NCBI GenBank assembly: GCA_964603535.1
Contig: CAZRVJ010000003.1
Location: 1 to 29,189, forward strand
Direction of reading: 5' to 3'
DNA length: 29,189 bases
From: an uncultured Candidatus Saccharibacteria bacterium
GTDB lineage: Bacteria > Patescibacteriota > Minisyncoccia > UBA6257 > JAAZHW01
In this document: positions 15,037 to 27,755 of the stretch, piece after piece
How the letters are laid out: every line of letters starts with the position of its first letter
Numbering within the stretch: the stretch's first letter is position 1
Translations under genes and position numbers: made by a program
Notes under the pieces: model-generated
What the model saw: the letters and a program-made list of their open reading frames with translations, nothing else
Databases searched by the model: none
What the model was told of the DNA's origin: nothing

Positions 15037-15108
15037 GCCATCTTAGCTCAGTGGTAGAGCAACTGTTTTGTAAACAGTAGGTCCCCGGTCCAAATCCGGG
15101 AGATGGCT
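15037..15108 (+). tRNA. trnT: tRNA-Thr(UGU); non-canonical T-loop UCCAAAU; CCA not encoded
   Basis: Acceptor GCCATCT/AGATGGC, anticodon arm ACTGT-TTTGTAA-ACAGT, T-stem CCCGG/CCGGG. Confidence 0.93.
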
Positions 15109-15152
15109 CAGATATAAAGGCGGTGGGATAAATAAAGAATAAATATTGTTGC

Positions 15153-15236
15153 GGGTAGGTGGCGGAGTAGTCAAACGCAACAGACTGTAAATCTGTCGGC
15201 CACTGGCCTACGCAGGTGCAAATCCTGCCCTACCCA
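15153..15236 (+). tRNA. trnY: tRNA-Tyr(GUA); long variable arm; A18 and G55 variants
   Basis: Acceptor GGGTAGG/CCTACCC, anticodon arm ACAGA-CTGTAAA-TCTGT, T-stem GCAGG/CCTGC with loop TGCAAAT. Confidence 0.93.
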
Positions 15237-15245
15237 CCGAAATAT

Positions 15246-15318
15246 GCCAATGTAGCTCAGTTGGTAGAGCAACCCCATGGTAAGGGGTAGGTCACCAGTT
15301 CAAGTCTGGTCATTGGCT
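15246..15318 (+). tRNA. trnT: tRNA-Thr(GGU)
   Basis: Acceptor GCCAATG/CATTGGC, anticodon arm ACCCC-ATGGTAA-GGGGT, T-arm ACCAG-TTCAAGT-CTGGT. Confidence 0.96.
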
Positions 15319-15447
15319 CCGAGTCAGAAAGTGGCACTATTTTAACTATTATGAAGTGACACTCTTCAGTTCTTCCGCCACTTATAATAGAATTAATGAT
15401 GGCGGGACCCCGCCATAGGCGGGGAAGTCTGGTCATTGGCTCAGAGT
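15302..15447 (+). repeat. att-like direct repeat of the tRNA-Thr(GGU) 3' end bracketing a 123-bp unit
   Basis: AAGTCTGGTCATTGGCTC exact at 15302-15319 and 15425-15442, extending to 23 bp with one mismatch. Confidence 0.85.
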
Positions 15448-15498
15448 TAAAAGTAGTCGTTAATGTCAGTTTTGATTTTTAGCTTTTAATTTAAAATT

Positions 15499-15657
15499 AT
15501 GTCTCAAGACAGATTAATTAAATTGCAATGCACAAAATGCAAAGGCATCAATTACTATTCCACTAAAAATAAGAAGACAGTGGAAAAGAAAATTGAATTA
15601 AAAAAACATTGCTCCAAGTGCAAAGCTCATACTAGTCATAAGGAAATGAAGAAGTAG
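15499..15657 (+). CDS. rpmG: 50S ribosomal protein L33 (not in the ORF track)
   Basis: Translated by hand: MSQDRLIKLQCTKCKGINYYSTKNKKTVEKKIELKKHCSKCKAHTSHKEMKK; two CxxC motifs; canonical position before tRNA-Trp. Confidence 0.95.
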   Translation: MSQDRLIKLQCTKCKGINYYSTKNKKTVEKKIELKKHCSKCKAHTSHKEMKK

Positions 15658-15835
15658 AAATCCCCATAGCTTCGCTATGGGTCGCCCTAACGGGCTCTTC
15701 GCATTTTTGCGATTCGTCCTTACTAATTGGCGGACGGCAAAATCTCGCAAAAATGCTTTGGGGATTTATATATTTTCTTTCGCTTCGCTCCAGGCTGACA
15801 TTAGATTCGCCTTCGGCGAAATGTCAGAAAATATA
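15658..15835. repeat. Nested palindromic (REP/MITE-like or structured RNA) element
   Basis: Several perfect inverted repeats of 8-12 bp with recurring CTTCG loops between rpmG and tRNA-Trp. Confidence 0.6.
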
Positions 15836-15851
15836 AAATAACGGGGATTCG

Positions 15852-15923
15852 GGGTCCATAGTTTCAATGGTAAAATGTCGATCTCCAAAATCGAAGTTCT
15901 CCGTTCGAATCGGAGTGGGCCCG
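15852..15923 (+). tRNA. trnW: tRNA-Trp(CCA)
   Basis: Acceptor GGGTCCA/TGGGCCC, anticodon arm TCGAT-CTCCAAA-ATCGA, T-arm CTCCG-TTCGAAT-CGGAG. Confidence 0.95.
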
Positions 15924-15991
15924 CATCTAATTTCTTTTATTGAAATTTTATTTTATAAAAAATAATTTTGTCGCGTTTTTATTTTAAAACA

Positions 15992-19690: not shown

Positions 19691-19774
19691 GCCCTCATGG
19701 TGGAATTGGTAGACACGCAGGCTTCAGGAGCCTGTCTCTTAACGGAGATAGAGGTTCAAATCCTCTTGAGGGCA
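19691..19774 (+). tRNA. trnL: tRNA-Leu(CAG)
   Basis: Acceptor GCCCTCA/TGAGGGC, anticodon arm CAGGC-TTCAGGA-GCCTG, long variable arm, T-arm AGAGG-TTCAAAT-CCTCT. Confidence 0.96.
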
Positions 19775-19793
19775 CGTTAAAGTAAAGAAAAAT

Positions 19794-22634: not shown

Positions 22635-22636
22635 AT

Positions 22637-22664
22637 AAAAAATCCGCCAATCGGCGGATTTTTT
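22637..22664. terminator. Bidirectional terminator between trpS and elp3
   Basis: AAAAAATCCGCC-AATC-GGCGGATTTTTT perfect 12-bp stem. Confidence 0.88.
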
Positions 22665-24231
22665 AAATATCTTTTGTCATATAAGTACCTTCTAGTTTGT
22701 AACCAAGGTGGCGATAGTAATCACGGACTCCAATGCCGGAGATGACGGCTATTCTTTTTAGTTGGAATTCTTTTTTGGCAATTCTTTCCGCTTCCGCTAC
22801 TAATTTTTTACCCAATCCTTTATGTTGAGCTGCAATAGATTTCTGCCCAATACCCAAAAGTTGACCATAAGTATGGACTTCTCTGATTAAGGCTGTTTTT
22901 TCTAATTCTTTAATAAAAAATGGTTGTTGTTTTAAAACATGTTCCGGAATGCGTAAACGTAACAAGCTAAATAATTTTGTTCTATCTTTGTTTTCCCAAG
23001 ATAAGAATATCTCTTTTCCATCGGATGCGTCATAGTCAATTCTGAATAATTGGATTTTTTCTTTGGGATCGTATAAATCTTTTACTTCTCGTGAGCGGAT
23101 GTCTTTGCATCTTTCTCCCTTTTTGGTTATTTCTCTATCAATCATTTCTCGCAAATTGGAGGTTTTAGACCCAGCAATGATGCTAGTGGCCGGAATATCT
23201 CTAATAACTCTTTGCATGCGGCAGTAATAGGGAATTTCCAGCATTATTTTTTTCATTAATTGATTTAATGTTTTTTCAGGGTATGGTTTGTATTCTCCCT
23301 TTAAATATGATTTATAAAGTTTAGATTCTTTTAAAACTACGCATGGATATATTTTTAATAAGTCCGGTTGGAAGTCGGAATTTCTAAATATCTCTTTAAA
23401 CATCGCCAAGTCTTTTTGAGGGGTGGAACCCATTAAATTGGGCATTAAATGATAGCAAATTTTAAACCCAGCTTCTTTTAGAAGTTTGGTAGCCACGATA
23501 GATTTTTCAACGGAATGTCCTCGTTTATTTAATTTTAAGACATTGTCATAAATACTTTGTATTCCCATTTCTACTCTAGTAACGCCTAATTCACGCATCA
23601 TGGCAATTTCTTTTTCATTAATAAAATCGGGACGAGTTTCAACTGTGAGTCCAATAATGCGGTTGTTAGATTTTTCATTAAGCATTTGCGCTTGCTTTAA
23701 AGTCTTACTGGTTTTTTCGTTGGCAGCGTCAAAAGCGCGTTTAATAAACCATTTTCTGTATTGTGCTGGTAAAAAAGACCAAGTGCCGCCAATAACGATT
23801 AATTCAATTTTATCGGTTGGGTGCCCGCTGATTTTTAAATCTTTTATTCTGTTGGCCGTTTGTTTATAAGGATCAAATTTGTTTAAAATAGCGCGCATAA
23901 TAGCCGGTTCGTTACTTAAATAACTTTTCGGCATTGCTTTTTCAGTGGGACAATAAATACATTGACCGGGGCAAGGATATTGTTTGGTAGAAATGGTAAT
24001 AATCGCTACTCCAGACAAAGAACGCATTTTTTTTGTTTTTAACAAGGCATATAATTTTGCGTCTTTCTTATTTTTCTTATTTTTAGTAAAATCTAAGTAA
24101 GCCATTGATAAGCGGCGATTGGATATTGGGTCTTCACCAGAGGATTTGGAAATTTCTCTTTTAAAATCATTCAAATCTTTCTCTGTATGAATCTTGGCTT
24201 TTATTAATTTTTTGATTATTTCGTTTTTCAT
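22663..24231 (-). CDS. elp3: Elp3-family radical SAM / KAT protein (tRNA U34 carboxymethyltransferase)
   Basis: CPGQCIYCP Fe-S motif, MPKSY...EPA.MRA, GGTW, ETRPD, RVEMG.Q, HLMPNL, LKIYP, R..RDIP, LRLR, REVHTYG, QH.GLG..L, VISGIGVRDYYR.LGY. Confidence 0.95.
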   Translation of the reverse strand: MKNEIIKKLIKAKIHTEKDLNDFKREISKSSGEDPISNRRLSMAYLDFTKNKKNKKDAKLYALLKTKKMRSLSGVAIITISTKQYPCPGQCIYCPTEKAMPKSYLSNEPAIMRAILNKFDPYKQTANRIKDLKISGHPTDKIELIVIGGTWSFLPAQYRKWFIKRAFDAANEKTSKTLKQAQMLNEKSNNRIIGLTVETRPDFINEKEIAMMRELGVTRVEMGIQSIYDNVLKLNKRGHSVEKSIVATKLLKEAGFKICYHLMPNLMGSTPQKDLAMFKEIFRNSDFQPDLLKIYPCVVLKESKLYKSYLKGEYKPYPEKTLNQLMKKIMLEIPYYCRMQRVIRDIPATSIIAGSKTSNLREMIDREITKKGERCKDIRSREVKDLYDPKEKIQLFRIDYDASDGKEIFLSWENKDRTKLFSLLRLRIPEHVLKQQPFFIKELEKTALIREVHTYGQLLGIGQKSIAAQHKGLGKKLVAEAERIAKKEFQLKRIAVISGIGVRDYYRHLGYKLEGTYMTKDI

Positions 24232-24243
24232 CGTTATAAAACA

Positions 24244-24271
24244 ATTTTACGCTGAAAAAATATTAAAGCAA
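24244..24271 (-). promoter_or_regulatory. Promoter for elp3 in the 66-bp divergent gap
   Basis: Minus strand TTGCTT, 16 nt, TAAAAT, 12 nt, ATG 24231. Confidence 0.5.
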
Positions 24272-24297
24272 GTATAAAAATATTTTATATTAAAATT

Positions 24298-25011
24298 ATG
24301 AGACAAAAAAGAGCTGAAAAATTATTAAGTGATGTTAAGGCTGATTATAATAAGATTGCCGGTCATTTTTCTAAAACTAGGGCTTATTTTTGGCCGGATG
24401 CCAAATTTTTATTGGATTATATAAAGGATGGCGATTTGGTTCTGGATTTGGGCTGTGGTAATGGACGGGCTTTTCGGGAAATTAAGGAAAGGGGGGCTCA
24501 ATATATTGGAGTAGATTTTTCCGAGGAATTAATAAAGGAAGCTAAAGATATTCATTCTGAAGCTGATTTTAGAGTAGCCAATGCTTTGCAGCTACCGTTC
24601 GTTGATGAATATTTTGATAAAATTTATTGCTTTGCTGTTTTGCATCATATTCCATCAAAACAATTACGCCAAGAATTTATGGAAGAGGCGCGTAGAGTTT
24701 TGAAACCAGGAGGTACTTTAATTTTAACGGTTTGGGATTTATGGTCAAATTCGCGCGCTAAGAAGATTTTATTTTGGAATAGATTAAAGAAATTGTTTTT
24801 TGCTTCATCTTTAGGCTGGAATGATGTTTTTTATTTATGGAAAGACGCTGAAGGGAAGATATTGGTTAAACGTTATGTGCATATGTTCAAAAAGAGGGAA
24901 TTGATAAGATTGGCGAAACGGTCAGATTTTGAAATAGTAAATTCCGGGAAGATTCAAAAAACAGGAAATGAAAATGGCAATATCTATTTAGTAGTGAAAA
25001 AGCCGCGTTAA
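24298..25011 (+). CDS. Class I SAM-dependent methyltransferase, Trm9/ALKBH8-like
   Basis: VLDLGCGNGR (SAM binding), FAVLHHI, LKPGG.LILTVW. N-terminal YNKIA.HFS.TR..W and C-terminal DVF..W...RYVH.F...EL resemble Trm9 as recalled. Methyltransferase call is firm; Trm9 orthology is less so. Confidence 0.85.
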   Translation: MRQKRAEKLLSDVKADYNKIAGHFSKTRAYFWPDAKFLLDYIKDGDLVLDLGCGNGRAFREIKERGAQYIGVDFSEELIKEAKDIHSEADFRVANALQLPFVDEYFDKIYCFAVLHHIPSKQLRQEFMEEARRVLKPGGTLILTVWDLWSNSRAKKILFWNRLKKLFFASSLGWNDVFYLWKDAEGKILVKRYVHMFKKRELIRLAKRSDFEIVNSGKIQKTGNENGNIYLVVKKPR

Positions 25012-25025
25012 TAATTTAAATTATT

Positions 25026-25355
25026 ATGAATTTTAAAGAATACCAAGAAAAATCTCAACAAACCGCGATTTATCCCAATTTGGGAAATAATTTTATCTAT
25101 CCGTCTTTGGGTTTGGCTGGTGAAACCGGTGAAGTGATGGAAAAAATAAAAAAATTGATTCGTGATCAAGATGGAAAAATCAATGATGAATTTAAAAAAG
25201 AAATTAGTAAAGAAATGGGCGATGTGTTGTGGTATTTAGCGCAATTAGCTACGGAATTTTCTTTATCCTTTGATAAAATAGCTGAGGAAAATATTGAGAA
25301 GCTTTTTTCCAGAAAAGATAGGGGAGTATTACATGGGGATGGCGATAATAGGTAA
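25026..25355 (+). CDS. MazG-like nucleoside triphosphate pyrophosphohydrolase
   Basis: YQ.....TA.YP, LGLAGE.GEV.EK.KK..RD, E.GDVLWY.A, N..KL.SR..RG.L.G.GDNR. Confidence 0.9.
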   Translation: MNFKEYQEKSQQTAIYPNLGNNFIYPSLGLAGETGEVMEKIKKLIRDQDGKINDEFKKEISKEMGDVLWYLAQLATEFSLSFDKIAEENIEKLFSRKDRGVLHGDGDNR

Positions 25356-25544: not shown

Positions 25545-27755
25545 ATGAATATGAAAAAAACTATTAATTTAATACTTGGCTTTGGTTTGATGACCGGAAT
25601 TATTTTATTATCTTTTATAATGATAAATGGTTTGAATTTTAGACCGGTTTTTGGTATGGCCGCTGTTGCTAATGGCGCTGTTTGTCCTCCAATAACCGCT
25701 CATCCAACCGGTATCAATTTTAATCCGGAACCAGCTAATGTAAATCAATCAGTAAATATCAGAACTGATCATATTTATGAATGTGATTCTGCTTCTTGCA
25801 CATGGTATTGGTCTGGTAGTGCGAATAATACAAATTCCAACAAACCGAATGGTTCTTTCAATACTACCTTTTCTTCAGCTGGTACAAAGAGCGTTTGCGT
25901 TGAAGTTCGTGCTGATTGGGCTGATGGTTGTGGCAGTGTAAGAGTCGCTTATGGTTGTGATAACCTTGCGGTAAATAATACCTCTGATGCTCTTCCTACG
26001 GTTAACCTCTTAGTTAATGGATCTAATGGTCCGATCACTGTTTCTCCTGGAGAATCTGCTAGATTATCTTGGACTTCTACTAATGCAGCTTTTTGTACTG
26101 CTTCTGATGATTGGTCTGGTAAGAAAAATCCTGAGGGATCAGAATCAACTGGTAAAGTTTATAGTACTAAAGCATACGTTATAACTTGTACTGGTGATGG
26201 AGGTTCTGCTTCTGATAAAGTTACTGTGAGAGTATCTGGTTCTGGAACACCGACTCCGTCTCCATGGCCGACTTCAACTCCGTATCCAACTTATACTCCA
26301 TGGCCGACTTATACCCCTTGGCCAACTTACGGACCGACTTGTATTCCTCCTGGAATTAATACCGTATCTATTTATCGTGATCCAACTCCGGTTTGTGCCG
26401 GACAGCAAAGTCTATTCAAGACTCAGGACATTTTTGAATGTTACGGATATTACTGCGAATGGCGTTGGTCAGGAGATGTTGGTAATACTACCAGCACAAA
26501 TAATCCTAATGGAAGTTTCTACACTACTTTTTCTAATGGAGGAACTAAAAATATCTATGTTGGCGTTTGGAAGAAAATGTATGTAGCCAATTGTGGCGAA
26601 CAATATTTCCAAATTGCTACCGGTTATTTGAACTTTACCGTTGGAGATTATTGTTCTTACACTCCGACCCCAACCGTAAGTCCTACTACCACTCCAACCC
26701 CTCCGATCTGTCAGCATAATCTTTTGGCTTTACCTTTAGCTCAAACATCTTGTGTTGTTACAGCCAATAATGGCGGAACTTGTAATGTTTCCACTTCTGA
26801 TGGTTTTAATGTTAGATACAATGTGTTAGCTGGATCAGTGAGTGCCAATACTAATATTAGCGTTTTCGTTTATCGCGCTAGCGATCTATCAGCGCTTAAT
26901 GTAAAAGTTGGAAACTTGTCTATCATTGGTAATAAGGTTGTTCAGGTGATTGCTGAGAATGATAATTGTCATGCAGTGACTCTTTCTAAGGATGCGATAA
27001 TTAATTTTACCTATCCGAATAGTTATACCTCTGGGTATATTGAGAGCTCATTCACTAACTATCATACTCCAACTTATGCTAATAATTGGTTTATGTTGCC
27101 GACAGCTAGAAGCACCAGTGCTAATACATTAACTTCATTAACAAGGAATTTGGGATACTTTGCTATCTATGGTCCGAAATACATCTATATTCCGACCGCA
27201 ACACCGACAGCAACTGCAACTCCTAGTCCGACTCCTGAAATTTTAGGCACTACCTGTGTTTATCCGCCGGCCGCGCCAACTGATAATGACTTTTTAGATT
27301 CTTTGTTCTTGGCCGCTTTAATTGACCAATTCAAAGGAATTAAAATTACTTGGTGTCAATTCTTAGCTCTATTGAATTTATTGCTTTTACTTTTGATCTT
27401 GTGGTTTGCTTTTTACAGAAAGGAAAAACAACCAACTAAACAAGAATCATTAGCTTTTAACGGATCTGTGGCTCAATCTAAAAAAGGAAAATCCTTTTGG
27501 CAATGGTTAGCTATCCCATTCGTTGCTTGCTTCGCTTATTTCCGTAAAGTATGGAAAAATCGTCAGGAAAAGAATAAATTCTGGAAAGAATTCAAGAAAA
27601 ACAATGTTTCTTTAAATTCTCTTTTAGATGAGATTAAAGAAAGCGACGGTAAAAACATTAATGCTTCAATTGCTCCAAATGATTTGCCAGTTGAAGTCAT
27701 TAAGAAAGACGTTCAGGACGATGAGAAAGGATCTCAATTCGTTATCATCAAATAA
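25545..27755 (+). CDS. Large modular Cys- and Pro/Thr-rich cell-surface protein with a C-terminal membrane anchor
   Basis: N-terminal hydrophobic signal, duplicated beta-rich domains, Ig-like segment (LSWTSTNA..CTA...WSG), PT-rich linkers, TM FLALLNLLLLLLILWFAFY. Confidence 0.85.
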   Translation: MNMKKTINLILGFGLMTGIILLSFIMINGLNFRPVFGMAAVANGAVCPPITAHPTGINFNPEPANVNQSVNIRTDHIYECDSASCTWYWSGSANNTNSNKPNGSFNTTFSSAGTKSVCVEVRADWADGCGSVRVAYGCDNLAVNNTSDALPTVNLLVNGSNGPITVSPGESARLSWTSTNAAFCTASDDWSGKKNPEGSESTGKVYSTKAYVITCTGDGGSASDKVTVRVSGSGTPTPSPWPTSTPYPTYTPWPTYTPWPTYGPTCIPPGINTVSIYRDPTPVCAGQQSLFKTQDIFECYGYYCEWRWSGDVGNTTSTNNPNGSFYTTFSNGGTKNIYVGVWKKMYVANCGEQYFQIATGYLNFTVGDYCSYTPTPTVSPTTTPTPPICQHNLLALPLAQTSCVVTANNGGTCNVSTSDGFNVRYNVLAGSVSANTNISVFVYRASDLSALNVKVGNLSIIGNKVVQVIAENDNCHAVTLSKDAIINFTYPNSYTSGYIESSFTNYHTPTYANNWFMLPTARSTSANTLTSLTRNLGYFAIYGPKYIYIPTATPTATATPSPTPEILGTTCVYPPAAPTDNDFLDSLFLAALIDQFKGIKITWCQFLALLNLLLLLLILWFAFYRKEKQPTKQESLAFNGSVAQSKKGKSFWQWLAIPFVACFAYFRKVWKNRQEKNKFWKEFKKNNVSLNSLLDEIKESDGKNINASIAPNDLPVEVIKKDVQDDEKGSQFVIIK
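26262..26333 (+). repeat. In-frame 18-bp tandem repeat, 4 copies (PWPTST PYPTYT PWPTYT PWPTYG)
   Basis: Degenerate CC(a/g/t)T(gg/at)CC(g/a)ACTT units read directly from the sequence. Confidence 0.85.

Follow-up and report, generated by a model that had tools for sequence, protein, structure and literature searches.

A divergently oriented elp3–methyltransferase gene pair in a Patescibacteria genome as a candidate bacterial Elp3/Trm9-type pathway of wobble-uridine modification

The modified nucleosides at the wobble uridine (U34) of tRNAs are divided in the literature between the domains of life, with the 5-methylaminomethyl and 5-carboxymethylaminomethyl types, (c)mnm5(s2)U, being assigned to Bacteria and the 5-methoxycarbonylmethyl type, mcm5(s2)U, to Eukarya (PMC5400242). 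The yeast methyltransferase Trm9 depends for its activity on Trm112 (PMC4678810, PMC5372719), and relatives of the Trm112-dependent methyltransferases were stated to be undetectable in bacteria in a 2017 review (PMC5372719). In archaea, orthologues of elp3 and trm9 cluster in Sulfolobus (PMC6144793). The bacterial Elp3 has been presented as a curiosity of Dehalococcoides (PMC7663514), while a 2026 paper (PMC13315578) concedes its presence in "numerous bacteria". Here, we analyse a gene pair, elp3 and a Trm9-type methyltransferase gene, in a stretch of 29,189 nucleotides, called the window in the following, which is the whole of contig CAZRVJ010000003.1 (contig C3) in the assembly GCA_964603535.1, a genome of 582 kb in 83 contigs with an estimated completeness of 95.9%. 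It is proposed that the locus encodes a two-step U34 pathway of the archaeal and eukaryotic type, in which Elp3 and a Trm112-independent Trm9-like enzyme act together with MnmA to give 5-methoxycarbonylmethyluridine (mcm5U) and its 2-thio form (mcm5s2U), a reading to which we give a probability of about 0.8.

The gene elp3 (22663-24231, minus strand) is an open reading frame (ORF) of 522 amino acids for a predicted tRNA U34 carboxymethylase of the radical-SAM/GNAT type, which is full-length and carries a basic extension at its N-terminus, and the second gene (24298-25011, plus strand) is an ORF of 237 amino acids encoding a class I methyltransferase of the Trm9 type that depends on S-adenosylmethionine (SAM) and is predicted to be a tRNA (carboxymethyluridine34-5-O)-methyltransferase. 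The two genes stand head to head and are transcribed divergently, with an AT-rich gap (24232-24297) between the facing start codons, which is presumed to hold the promoters of both. The sequence-only reading of this DNA had described a head-to-head pair 66 bp apart, and the ORF boundaries give a gap of exactly that length.

Comparing with Trm9-Trm112 of Saccharomyces cerevisiae and Yarrowia lipolytica (5CM2) and with ALKBH8-TRMT112, the window methyltransferase has the same class I SAM fold, with these enzymes being its top structural and sequence matches, shares with the fungal Trm9 and ALKBH8 enzymes the N-terminal Y..IA..FS.TR helix and the active-site residues described below, is also paired with Elp3, and has the same predicted reaction, the conversion of 5-carboxymethyluridine (cm5U) to mcm5U. 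It differs from them in being bacterial, in having no Trm112 in its genome, in having Val at the position of Y243, in having no RRM or AlkB domains and in lying head to head with elp3. Comparing with the archaeal Trm9 (Haloferax volcanii HVO_1032 and the elp3-trm9 cluster of Sulfolobus; PMC6144793), it is likewise prokaryotic, single-domain and clustered with elp3. In the archaeal homologues of the loci analysed here no signature residue is missing, and the Y243 position is occupied by Tyr; the archaeal enzyme, however, uses Trm112, its gene is co-directional with elp3 in the sole archaeal locus having elp3 nearby (a Crenarchaeota locus, L067), and the archaeal sequences form a clade of their own. 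With the canonical bacterial pathway, i.e., MnmE/MnmG plus MnmC or MnmM, the proposed pathway would share the role of setting the C5 side chain of the wobble uridine in split codon boxes and the thiolation partner MnmA, but the enzymes and the chemistry are unrelated.

For the identity of the methyltransferase, Pfam gives only generic SAM-methyltransferase domains (Methyltransf_11 at 1e-25), and no NCBIfam model scores above its cut-off. UbiE/MenG, ArsM and BioC were considered as identities and rejected, with their Pfam or NCBIfam matches being generic or below the curated cut-off. In a phmmer search against all PDB sequences the best match is 5cm2_Z, the Trm9 chain of the Yarrowia Trm9-Trm112 complex (5CM2), which is also the sole match spanning the whole protein, the others covering the Rossmann core only; with a profile of 40 family sequences, 5cm2_Z is again first, at 2e-23, and again gives the sole alignment over the full length. 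An AlphaFold (AF2) model built from the 40-sequence alignment, with a predicted local distance difference test score of 94.2 and a predicted template modelling score of 0.91, was compared by Foldseek with the 550,129 structures of reviewed UniProt (Swiss-Prot) entries and with the PDB. The Swiss-Prot ranks 1-10, with E-values of 7e-21 to 2e-16, are occupied by the Trm9 proteins of Schizosaccharomyces pombe, S. cerevisiae and Arabidopsis, five vertebrate ALKBH8s and two microsporidian homologs, and enzymes of the MenG/UbiG type appear from rank 11 on; the identity to the named Trm9/ALKBH8 enzymes is 20-29%. The family has 34 invariant columns over the 40 sequences (41-92% identity), among which are D50 of motif I (LDLGCGNG) and D73. 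The motifs that had been quoted before, VKADYNKIAGHFSKTRAYFWP, LGCGNG, FAVLHHI, ILTVW, DVFYLW and RYVHMF, were all found in the translation.

The active site can be compared with the mutagenesis of S. cerevisiae Trm9 (ScTrm9) by Létoquart et al. (PMC4678810), in which the alanine mutants of eight residues (R29, D72, H116, W145, W168, R241, Y243 and N271) abolish or strongly reduce the activity, the loss for Y243 being tenfold, and in the published model of which R29, H115/H116, W145, R241 and N271 position the carboxylate of cm5U and the uracil ring. The residues were mapped by adding 35 to the residue numbers of the chain 5cm2_Z, which gives the published Yarrowia numbering at every checked residue. 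The eight residues correspond, in the same order, to R28, D73, H117, W146, W181, R192, V194 and N228 of the window protein. All of them but V194, seven in total, are invariant in the 40 family members, as are Y17 and H116, which are equivalent to Y18 and H115 of ScTrm9, and the cm5U-positioning residues sit outside the generic SAM motifs. In a wider set of 79 loci from Patescibacteria, Chloroflexota and archaea, the residue is kept in 79 loci for R28, 78 for D73, 78 for H116, 77 for H117, 79 for W146, 68 for W181 (with Phe or Tyr in 10 more), 73 for R192 and 60 for N228. Sequence, predicted fold and active site, as three independent lines, support the assignment of the methyltransferase to the Trm9/ALKBH8 family as a bacterial member; on the question of Trm9 versus other methyltransferases, which the sequence-only reading had raised, the ten top Swiss-Prot matches, the best PDB sequence match to 5CM2 and the seven invariant residues out of eight essential ones all point to Trm9.

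The window Elp3 matches the NCBIfam model TIGR01211 with 561.6 bits, the cut-off being 350, over residues 4-521 of 522. The [4Fe-4S] cysteine triad of the radical-SAM domain, C87/C91/C94 in CPGQCIYC, aligns to CPGKCIYC of Dehalococcoides mccartyi Elp3 (DmcElp3, PDB 5L7J) and is kept in 63 of the 64 Elp3 homologues from the loci, and the acetyl-CoA (KAT/GNAT) motif QHKGLG at residue 469 aligns to QHRGLG of DmcElp3; the GNAT matches in Pfam over 467-512 stay under the gathering score, as those of Elp3 usually do. The claim of an intact Elp3 is borne out by this end-to-end match with both motifs in place. Its best PDB matches are Methanocaldococcus infernus Elp3 (MinElp3, E-value 3e-137) and DmcElp3 (2e-118). 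With DmcElp3, the studied bacterial Elp3, it has in common that it is bacterial, stands alone and has the CPGxCIYCP radical-SAM motif plus the KAT motif. By contrast, it is nearer to the archaeal MinElp3 (461 versus 399 bits), and while the N-terminus of DmcElp3 is short, that of the window Elp3 is long and basic (21 Lys or Arg in residues 1-75), like the tRNA-binding N-terminus of the archaeal Elp3.

The two genes belong together well beyond this genome. Of 301 sampled genomes from the phylum, 118 have an Elp3 above the cut-off, and 75 have a methyltransferase orthologue (E<=5e-22, a threshold set after inspecting the data), every one of them together with Elp3, so that no orthologue at this threshold occurs without Elp3 among the 301. 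Counting by hand from the coordinates, we find elp3 divergent, on the same contig and within about 250 bp in about 58 of the 75, within 0.8-3.5 kb in 8, and on another contig or elsewhere in 9; these numbers are descriptive, since related genomes do not count as independent observations. A second, independent scan, made on named GTDB genomes, yielded 80 loci with 4 kb of flank from Patescibacteria, Chloroflexota and archaea, 69 of them having Elp3 within the 4 kb and 61 having it directly upstream and divergent, while at least 3 of the 11 loci without it end at a contig edge. A Chloroflexota clade (Anaerolineae and Ca. Aquidulcis) has the pair in 21 of 21 loci. The gaps between the two genes in the homologous loci are typically short (6-70 bp), and the protein identity among the conserved divergent pairs across the two bacterial phyla is 30-50%. 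The conservation of the divergent pair in Patescibacteria and Chloroflexota is what the proposed synteny check returned, and the adjacency of elp3 and the methyltransferase gene is far beyond chance. The homologue search for a cultured carrier of the pair returned metagenome-assembled genomes only; the close homologues carry the label Candidatus Paceibacterota (Patescibacteria).

In a maximum-likelihood tree of the 80 homologues and the paralog from the host genome, the Chloroflexota clade (100/100) and the three archaeal sequences (100/99) are well separated and the paralog is split off by a branch of 4.69; the Patescibacteria backbone is unresolved, and therefore we make no claim on origin, donor or direction of transfer. 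A locus labelled as Candidatus Pacearchaeota archaeon (L011, DAOPTN010000030.1) also has the divergent pair, with its methyltransferase nesting within Paceibacterota bacteria (98/84), and its archaeal label is probably an error of binning or labelling.

We next consider the other enzymes of U34. In the host genome we found no MnmG, no MnmE beyond a P-loop match of 20 bits, no CmoB, TrhP or TrhO, and no match to PF01171, i.e., no TilS, TtcA, TtuA or Ncs6-type enzyme, whereas MnmA (TrmU) is present with 293 bits. In the sample of 301 genomes MnmG occurs in 11, none of which is among the 118 with Elp3, and roughly 170 genomes have neither. A complete MnmEG pathway had been named as a finding that would count against the pair's role; MnmE and MnmG are missing from what we found in the host, and MnmG and Elp3 never occur together in the sample. 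In two of the MnmG-positive genomes (G118:C50:5591-9395 and G096:C207:394-2941) a radical-SAM gene that matches the central part of the Elp3 model only (E exponent 18-19) adjoins mnmG, and it is possibly MnmL/YtqA-like. ARAGORN finds 35 tRNAs in the host genome, ten of which have U34, including Glu-UUC, Lys-UUU, Arg-UCU and Gly-UCC, the yeast counterparts of which carry mcm5U or mcm5s2U. It found no tRNA-Gln in the assembly and only two CAU tRNAs; together with the lack of a PF01171 enzyme, this could reflect either assembly gaps or an unusual decoding of AUA/Ile. Within the window itself, upstream of the RNase J gene, there are a plus-strand cluster of tRNA-Thr-UGU, Tyr-GUA, Thr-GGU and Trp-CCA (15037-15924) and a tRNA-Leu(CAG) (19691-19775, plus strand), of which tRNA-Thr-UGU, having U34, is a possible substrate of Elp3.

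Based on the above, the following pathway can be envisaged. Elp3, with its radical-SAM domain and acetyl-CoA-binding (KAT) domain, would put a carboxymethyl group on C5 of U34, giving cm5U; the Trm9-like methyltransferase would then esterify the carboxyl group of cm5U with a methyl group from SAM, giving mcm5U, and would do so without Trm112; and MnmA would add the 2-thio group on tRNA-Glu(UUC), tRNA-Lys(UUU) and presumably tRNA-Gln(UUG), giving mcm5s2U by a hybrid pathway. The Elp3/Trm9-like route would in this way replace the missing MnmE/MnmG in a reduced genome. The analysis establishes the gene identity, the intact catalytic motifs, the conserved active-site residues, the fold similarity, the synteny, the co-occurrence and the failure to find alternative pathways; the chemistry, the tRNA substrates, the Trm112 independence of the active state and the final nucleoside are inferred. 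The predicted two-step pathway of the eukaryotic and archaeal style that had been put forward from the letters gains support from the Trm9 identity, the synteny and the lack of MnmEG.

Several points weigh against this proposal. The orthology to Trm9 rests on the fold ranking, the active-site residues and the gene context, the tree covering the 80 bacterial and archaeal homologues and the paralog. In the profile search the margin is narrow, 85.9 bits for 5cm2_Z versus 81.9 bits for PH0226, an uncharacterised Pyrococcus methyltransferase, which is not clearly separated from Trm9, and therefore the sequence score alone is not decisive. In the Foldseek search of the PDB the uncharacterised Methanosarcina mazei methyltransferase 3SM3 is placed first and 5CM2 second; 3SM3 was rejected as the closest relative, the HH motif being missing from its alignment, and is taken as a case of generic fold similarity. 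The equivalent of Y243 is Val in the window protein and is variable across the family, with Tyr in 33 of the 79 loci, including all three archaeal sequences. Trm112 (PF03966), which is obligatory for yeast Trm9, was not found in the host genome. The zinc site of the window Elp3 reads C375/D377/S380 (23092-23109, minus strand), with two of the three ligands lost, while MinElp3 and DmcElp3 read CRCIRC there and the three-Cys site was reported to be strictly conserved in prokaryotic Elp3 (Lin 2019, PMC6367351). Finally, neither biochemistry nor mass spectrometry has given evidence of cm5U or mcm5U in any bacterium, as stated explicitly for Dehalococcoides in a 2020 review (PMC7663514).

As to the zinc site, the reading is not an error, because the eight closest Elp3 relatives (84-100% identity) have the same loss. 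The full Cys triad is kept in 62 of the 64 Elp3s from the loci and in 103 of the 120 nearest proteins, and is thus missing from 17 of the latter, so that the alignments define a candidate zinc-less sub-lineage of bacterial Elp3 by the loss in the eight closest relatives and in these 17 proteins. Eukaryotic Elp3s are also without the three-Cys site, and therefore the site marks a prokaryotic subtype rather than the Elp3 family. It is also noted that some Elp3 frames in Patescibacteria are 640-742 amino acids long, with the match to the hidden Markov model falling into two parts (G147:C4, G035:C34, G060:C9, G275:C27 and G077:C19), which suggests in-frame insertions, e.g., inteins or mobile nuclease elements.

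The alternatives can be weighed on the same evidence. It could be that the methyltransferase is Trm9-like in fold but acts on something else, be it a small molecule, a protein or a different position in tRNA or rRNA, its linkage to elp3 reflecting shared regulation or some other joint function. This would accord with the generic families to which Pfam and NCBIfam assign the protein, with the Trm9 sequence scores being only marginally above those of other methyltransferases, and with the about 33 Elp3-positive genomes of the sample, including all members of one family (f31), that have no orthologue, from which it follows that Elp3 can work without the methyltransferase. However, the residues that are invariant are exactly those positioning cm5U, outside the generic SAM motifs, the orthologue never occurs without Elp3 in the 301 genomes, and Trm9/ALKBH8 enzymes or microsporidian homologs of them fill the ten best places among the named structural matches, so we consider this alternative unlikely. 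The absence of Trm112, the obligate partner of the eukaryotic and archaeal enzymes, was missed by the sequence-only reading, and it gives room to another explanation, in which the methyltransferase needs a Trm112-like activator, as yeast Trm9 does (PMC4678810, PMC5372719), and is inactive or marginal here, the pathway ending at cm5U or at a derivative of the 5-carbamoylmethyluridine (ncm5U) type. Within the phylum only 5 of 151 genomes have a PF03966 match above the cut-off, each lying in a frame of at least 313 amino acids and none being a small free-standing protein, and with no PF03966 in the host genome the methyltransferase is therefore to be regarded as a relative of Trm9, not as a Trm9-Trm112 holoenzyme. 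An inactive enzyme is nevertheless hard to square with the strong purifying conservation of the family (the 34 invariant columns) and with the gene being kept beside elp3 in genomes that are about 0.6 Mb in size, although a small unrecognised partner may exist, and we give this explanation little credence.

The known bacterial analogue of the proposed chemistry is CmoM, which converts uridine 5-oxyacetic acid (cmo5U) to its methyl ester (mcmo5U), and a CmoM-like role would involve the same chemistry, in which a carboxymethyl-type side chain of U34 is methyl-esterified, and the same general fold class. Such a role is very improbable, because the host genome has no route to cmo5U, with CmoB, TrhP and TrhO not being found in it; moreover, no CmoM is among the top 30 Swiss-Prot or the top 50 PDB structural matches, and the linkage is to Elp3 rather than to cmo genes. 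Class I methyltransferases being abundant, with some match at E<=1e-5 in 250 of the 301 genomes, one might also suppose that a generic housekeeping enzyme has come to lie beside elp3 fortuitously. This supposition is effectively refuted by the divergent pair in about 61 of the 80 loci across two bacterial phyla at the protein identities given above; in addition, the only paralog in the genome (on contig C45) is 26% identical over the Rossmann core and has neither the HH and W motifs nor the active-site residues. We thus retain the reading of the locus as a two-step pathway of Elp3 and a Trm9-like enzyme.

With the usual bacterial enzymes not found in the host genome and the pair recurring across two bacterial phyla, the bacteria carrying it probably make a tRNA modification that the textbooks give to eukaryotes. 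The statement in the sequence-only reading that no such two-gene bacterial system was described stands for the searchable papers, our literature search having found none that describes a bacterial Trm9, a bacterial Elp3-Trm9 pair or bacterial mcm5s2U. It does not stand for the databases, where the automatic annotation of the Joint Genome Institute (JGI) already applies the name "tRNA (uracil-5-)-methyltransferase TRM9" to many Chloroflexota homologues and "alkB family protein 8" to one from the candidate phyla radiation, and NCBI annotation names the partner proteins in Patescibacteria Elp3; for this pair, automatic annotation is ahead of the literature. What is new here is that enzymes already known turn up in a domain where they were not expected, lack their canonical activator and are combined with a bacterial thiolase. 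A much wider conjecture, which we put forward only tentatively and would rather doubt than accept, is that in at least a quarter of Patescibacteria and in Anaerolineae-type Chloroflexota a Trm112-free Elp3/Trm9 pathway with MnmA fully replaces MnmEG and leads to mcm5s2U, as an old and vertically inherited trait rather than a recent import from archaea. If it is true, the Elongator-type pathway would be pushed back towards the divergence of bacteria and archaea. Apart from this conjecture, the locus and its relatives suggest that much of the candidate phyla radiation, together with many Chloroflexota, may decode split codon boxes with a "eukaryotic" modification. The predicted natural Trm112-independent Trm9 would help to explain why the eukaryotic enzyme needs an activator and would be a simpler reagent, and the bacterial Elp3 described here, being compact, canonical in appearance and endowed with a long basic N-terminus, could outdo the weakly active DmcElp3 as a biochemical model. 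Moreover, the routine annotation of these methyltransferase genes as "UbiE" or "class I SAM-dependent methyltransferase" would be corrected.

Concerning expression, a consensus promoter scan of the 66-bp gap gave promoter-like matches no commoner than in shuffled sequence, and the co-regulation of elp3 and the methyltransferase gene from the common gap is an assumption. Near-identical DNA is present in many sludge and wastewater metagenomes. In two wastewater metatranscriptome libraries there are contigs that match parts of elp3 and the 3' end of the methyltransferase gene at 99% identity or higher, and these contigs are compatible with transcription of the pair, with carry-over of DNA being an alternative. 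Contigs from both libraries, also at 99% identity or more, span the gap and both 5' ends (24190-24464); these are ambiguous and could be due either to overlapping divergent transcripts or to DNA carry-over.

Around the pair, the genes for RNase J and tryptophanyl-tRNA synthetase (trpS) lie on one flank, and a gene for a small MazG-like protein lies on the opposite one. The 3' ends of trpS and elp3 converge, and between them there is a hairpin (22636-22665, both strands) with a GC-rich stem of 13 bp and T runs, which by its match to the consensus is likely a bidirectional terminator. The MazG-like gene (25026-25355, plus strand), encoding a protein with a nucleotide pyrophosphohydrolase domain, begins 14 bp past the stop of the methyltransferase gene and is probably co-transcribed with it; as a third member of the module it was rejected, accompanying the pair in 0 of the 80 homologous loci. 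Further downstream, an ORF of 736 amino acids with no Pfam match (25545-27755, plus strand) combines a hydrophobic segment at the N-terminus with linkers rich in Pro/Thr and a membrane-like segment at the C-terminus, and from these features it probably encodes a surface protein.

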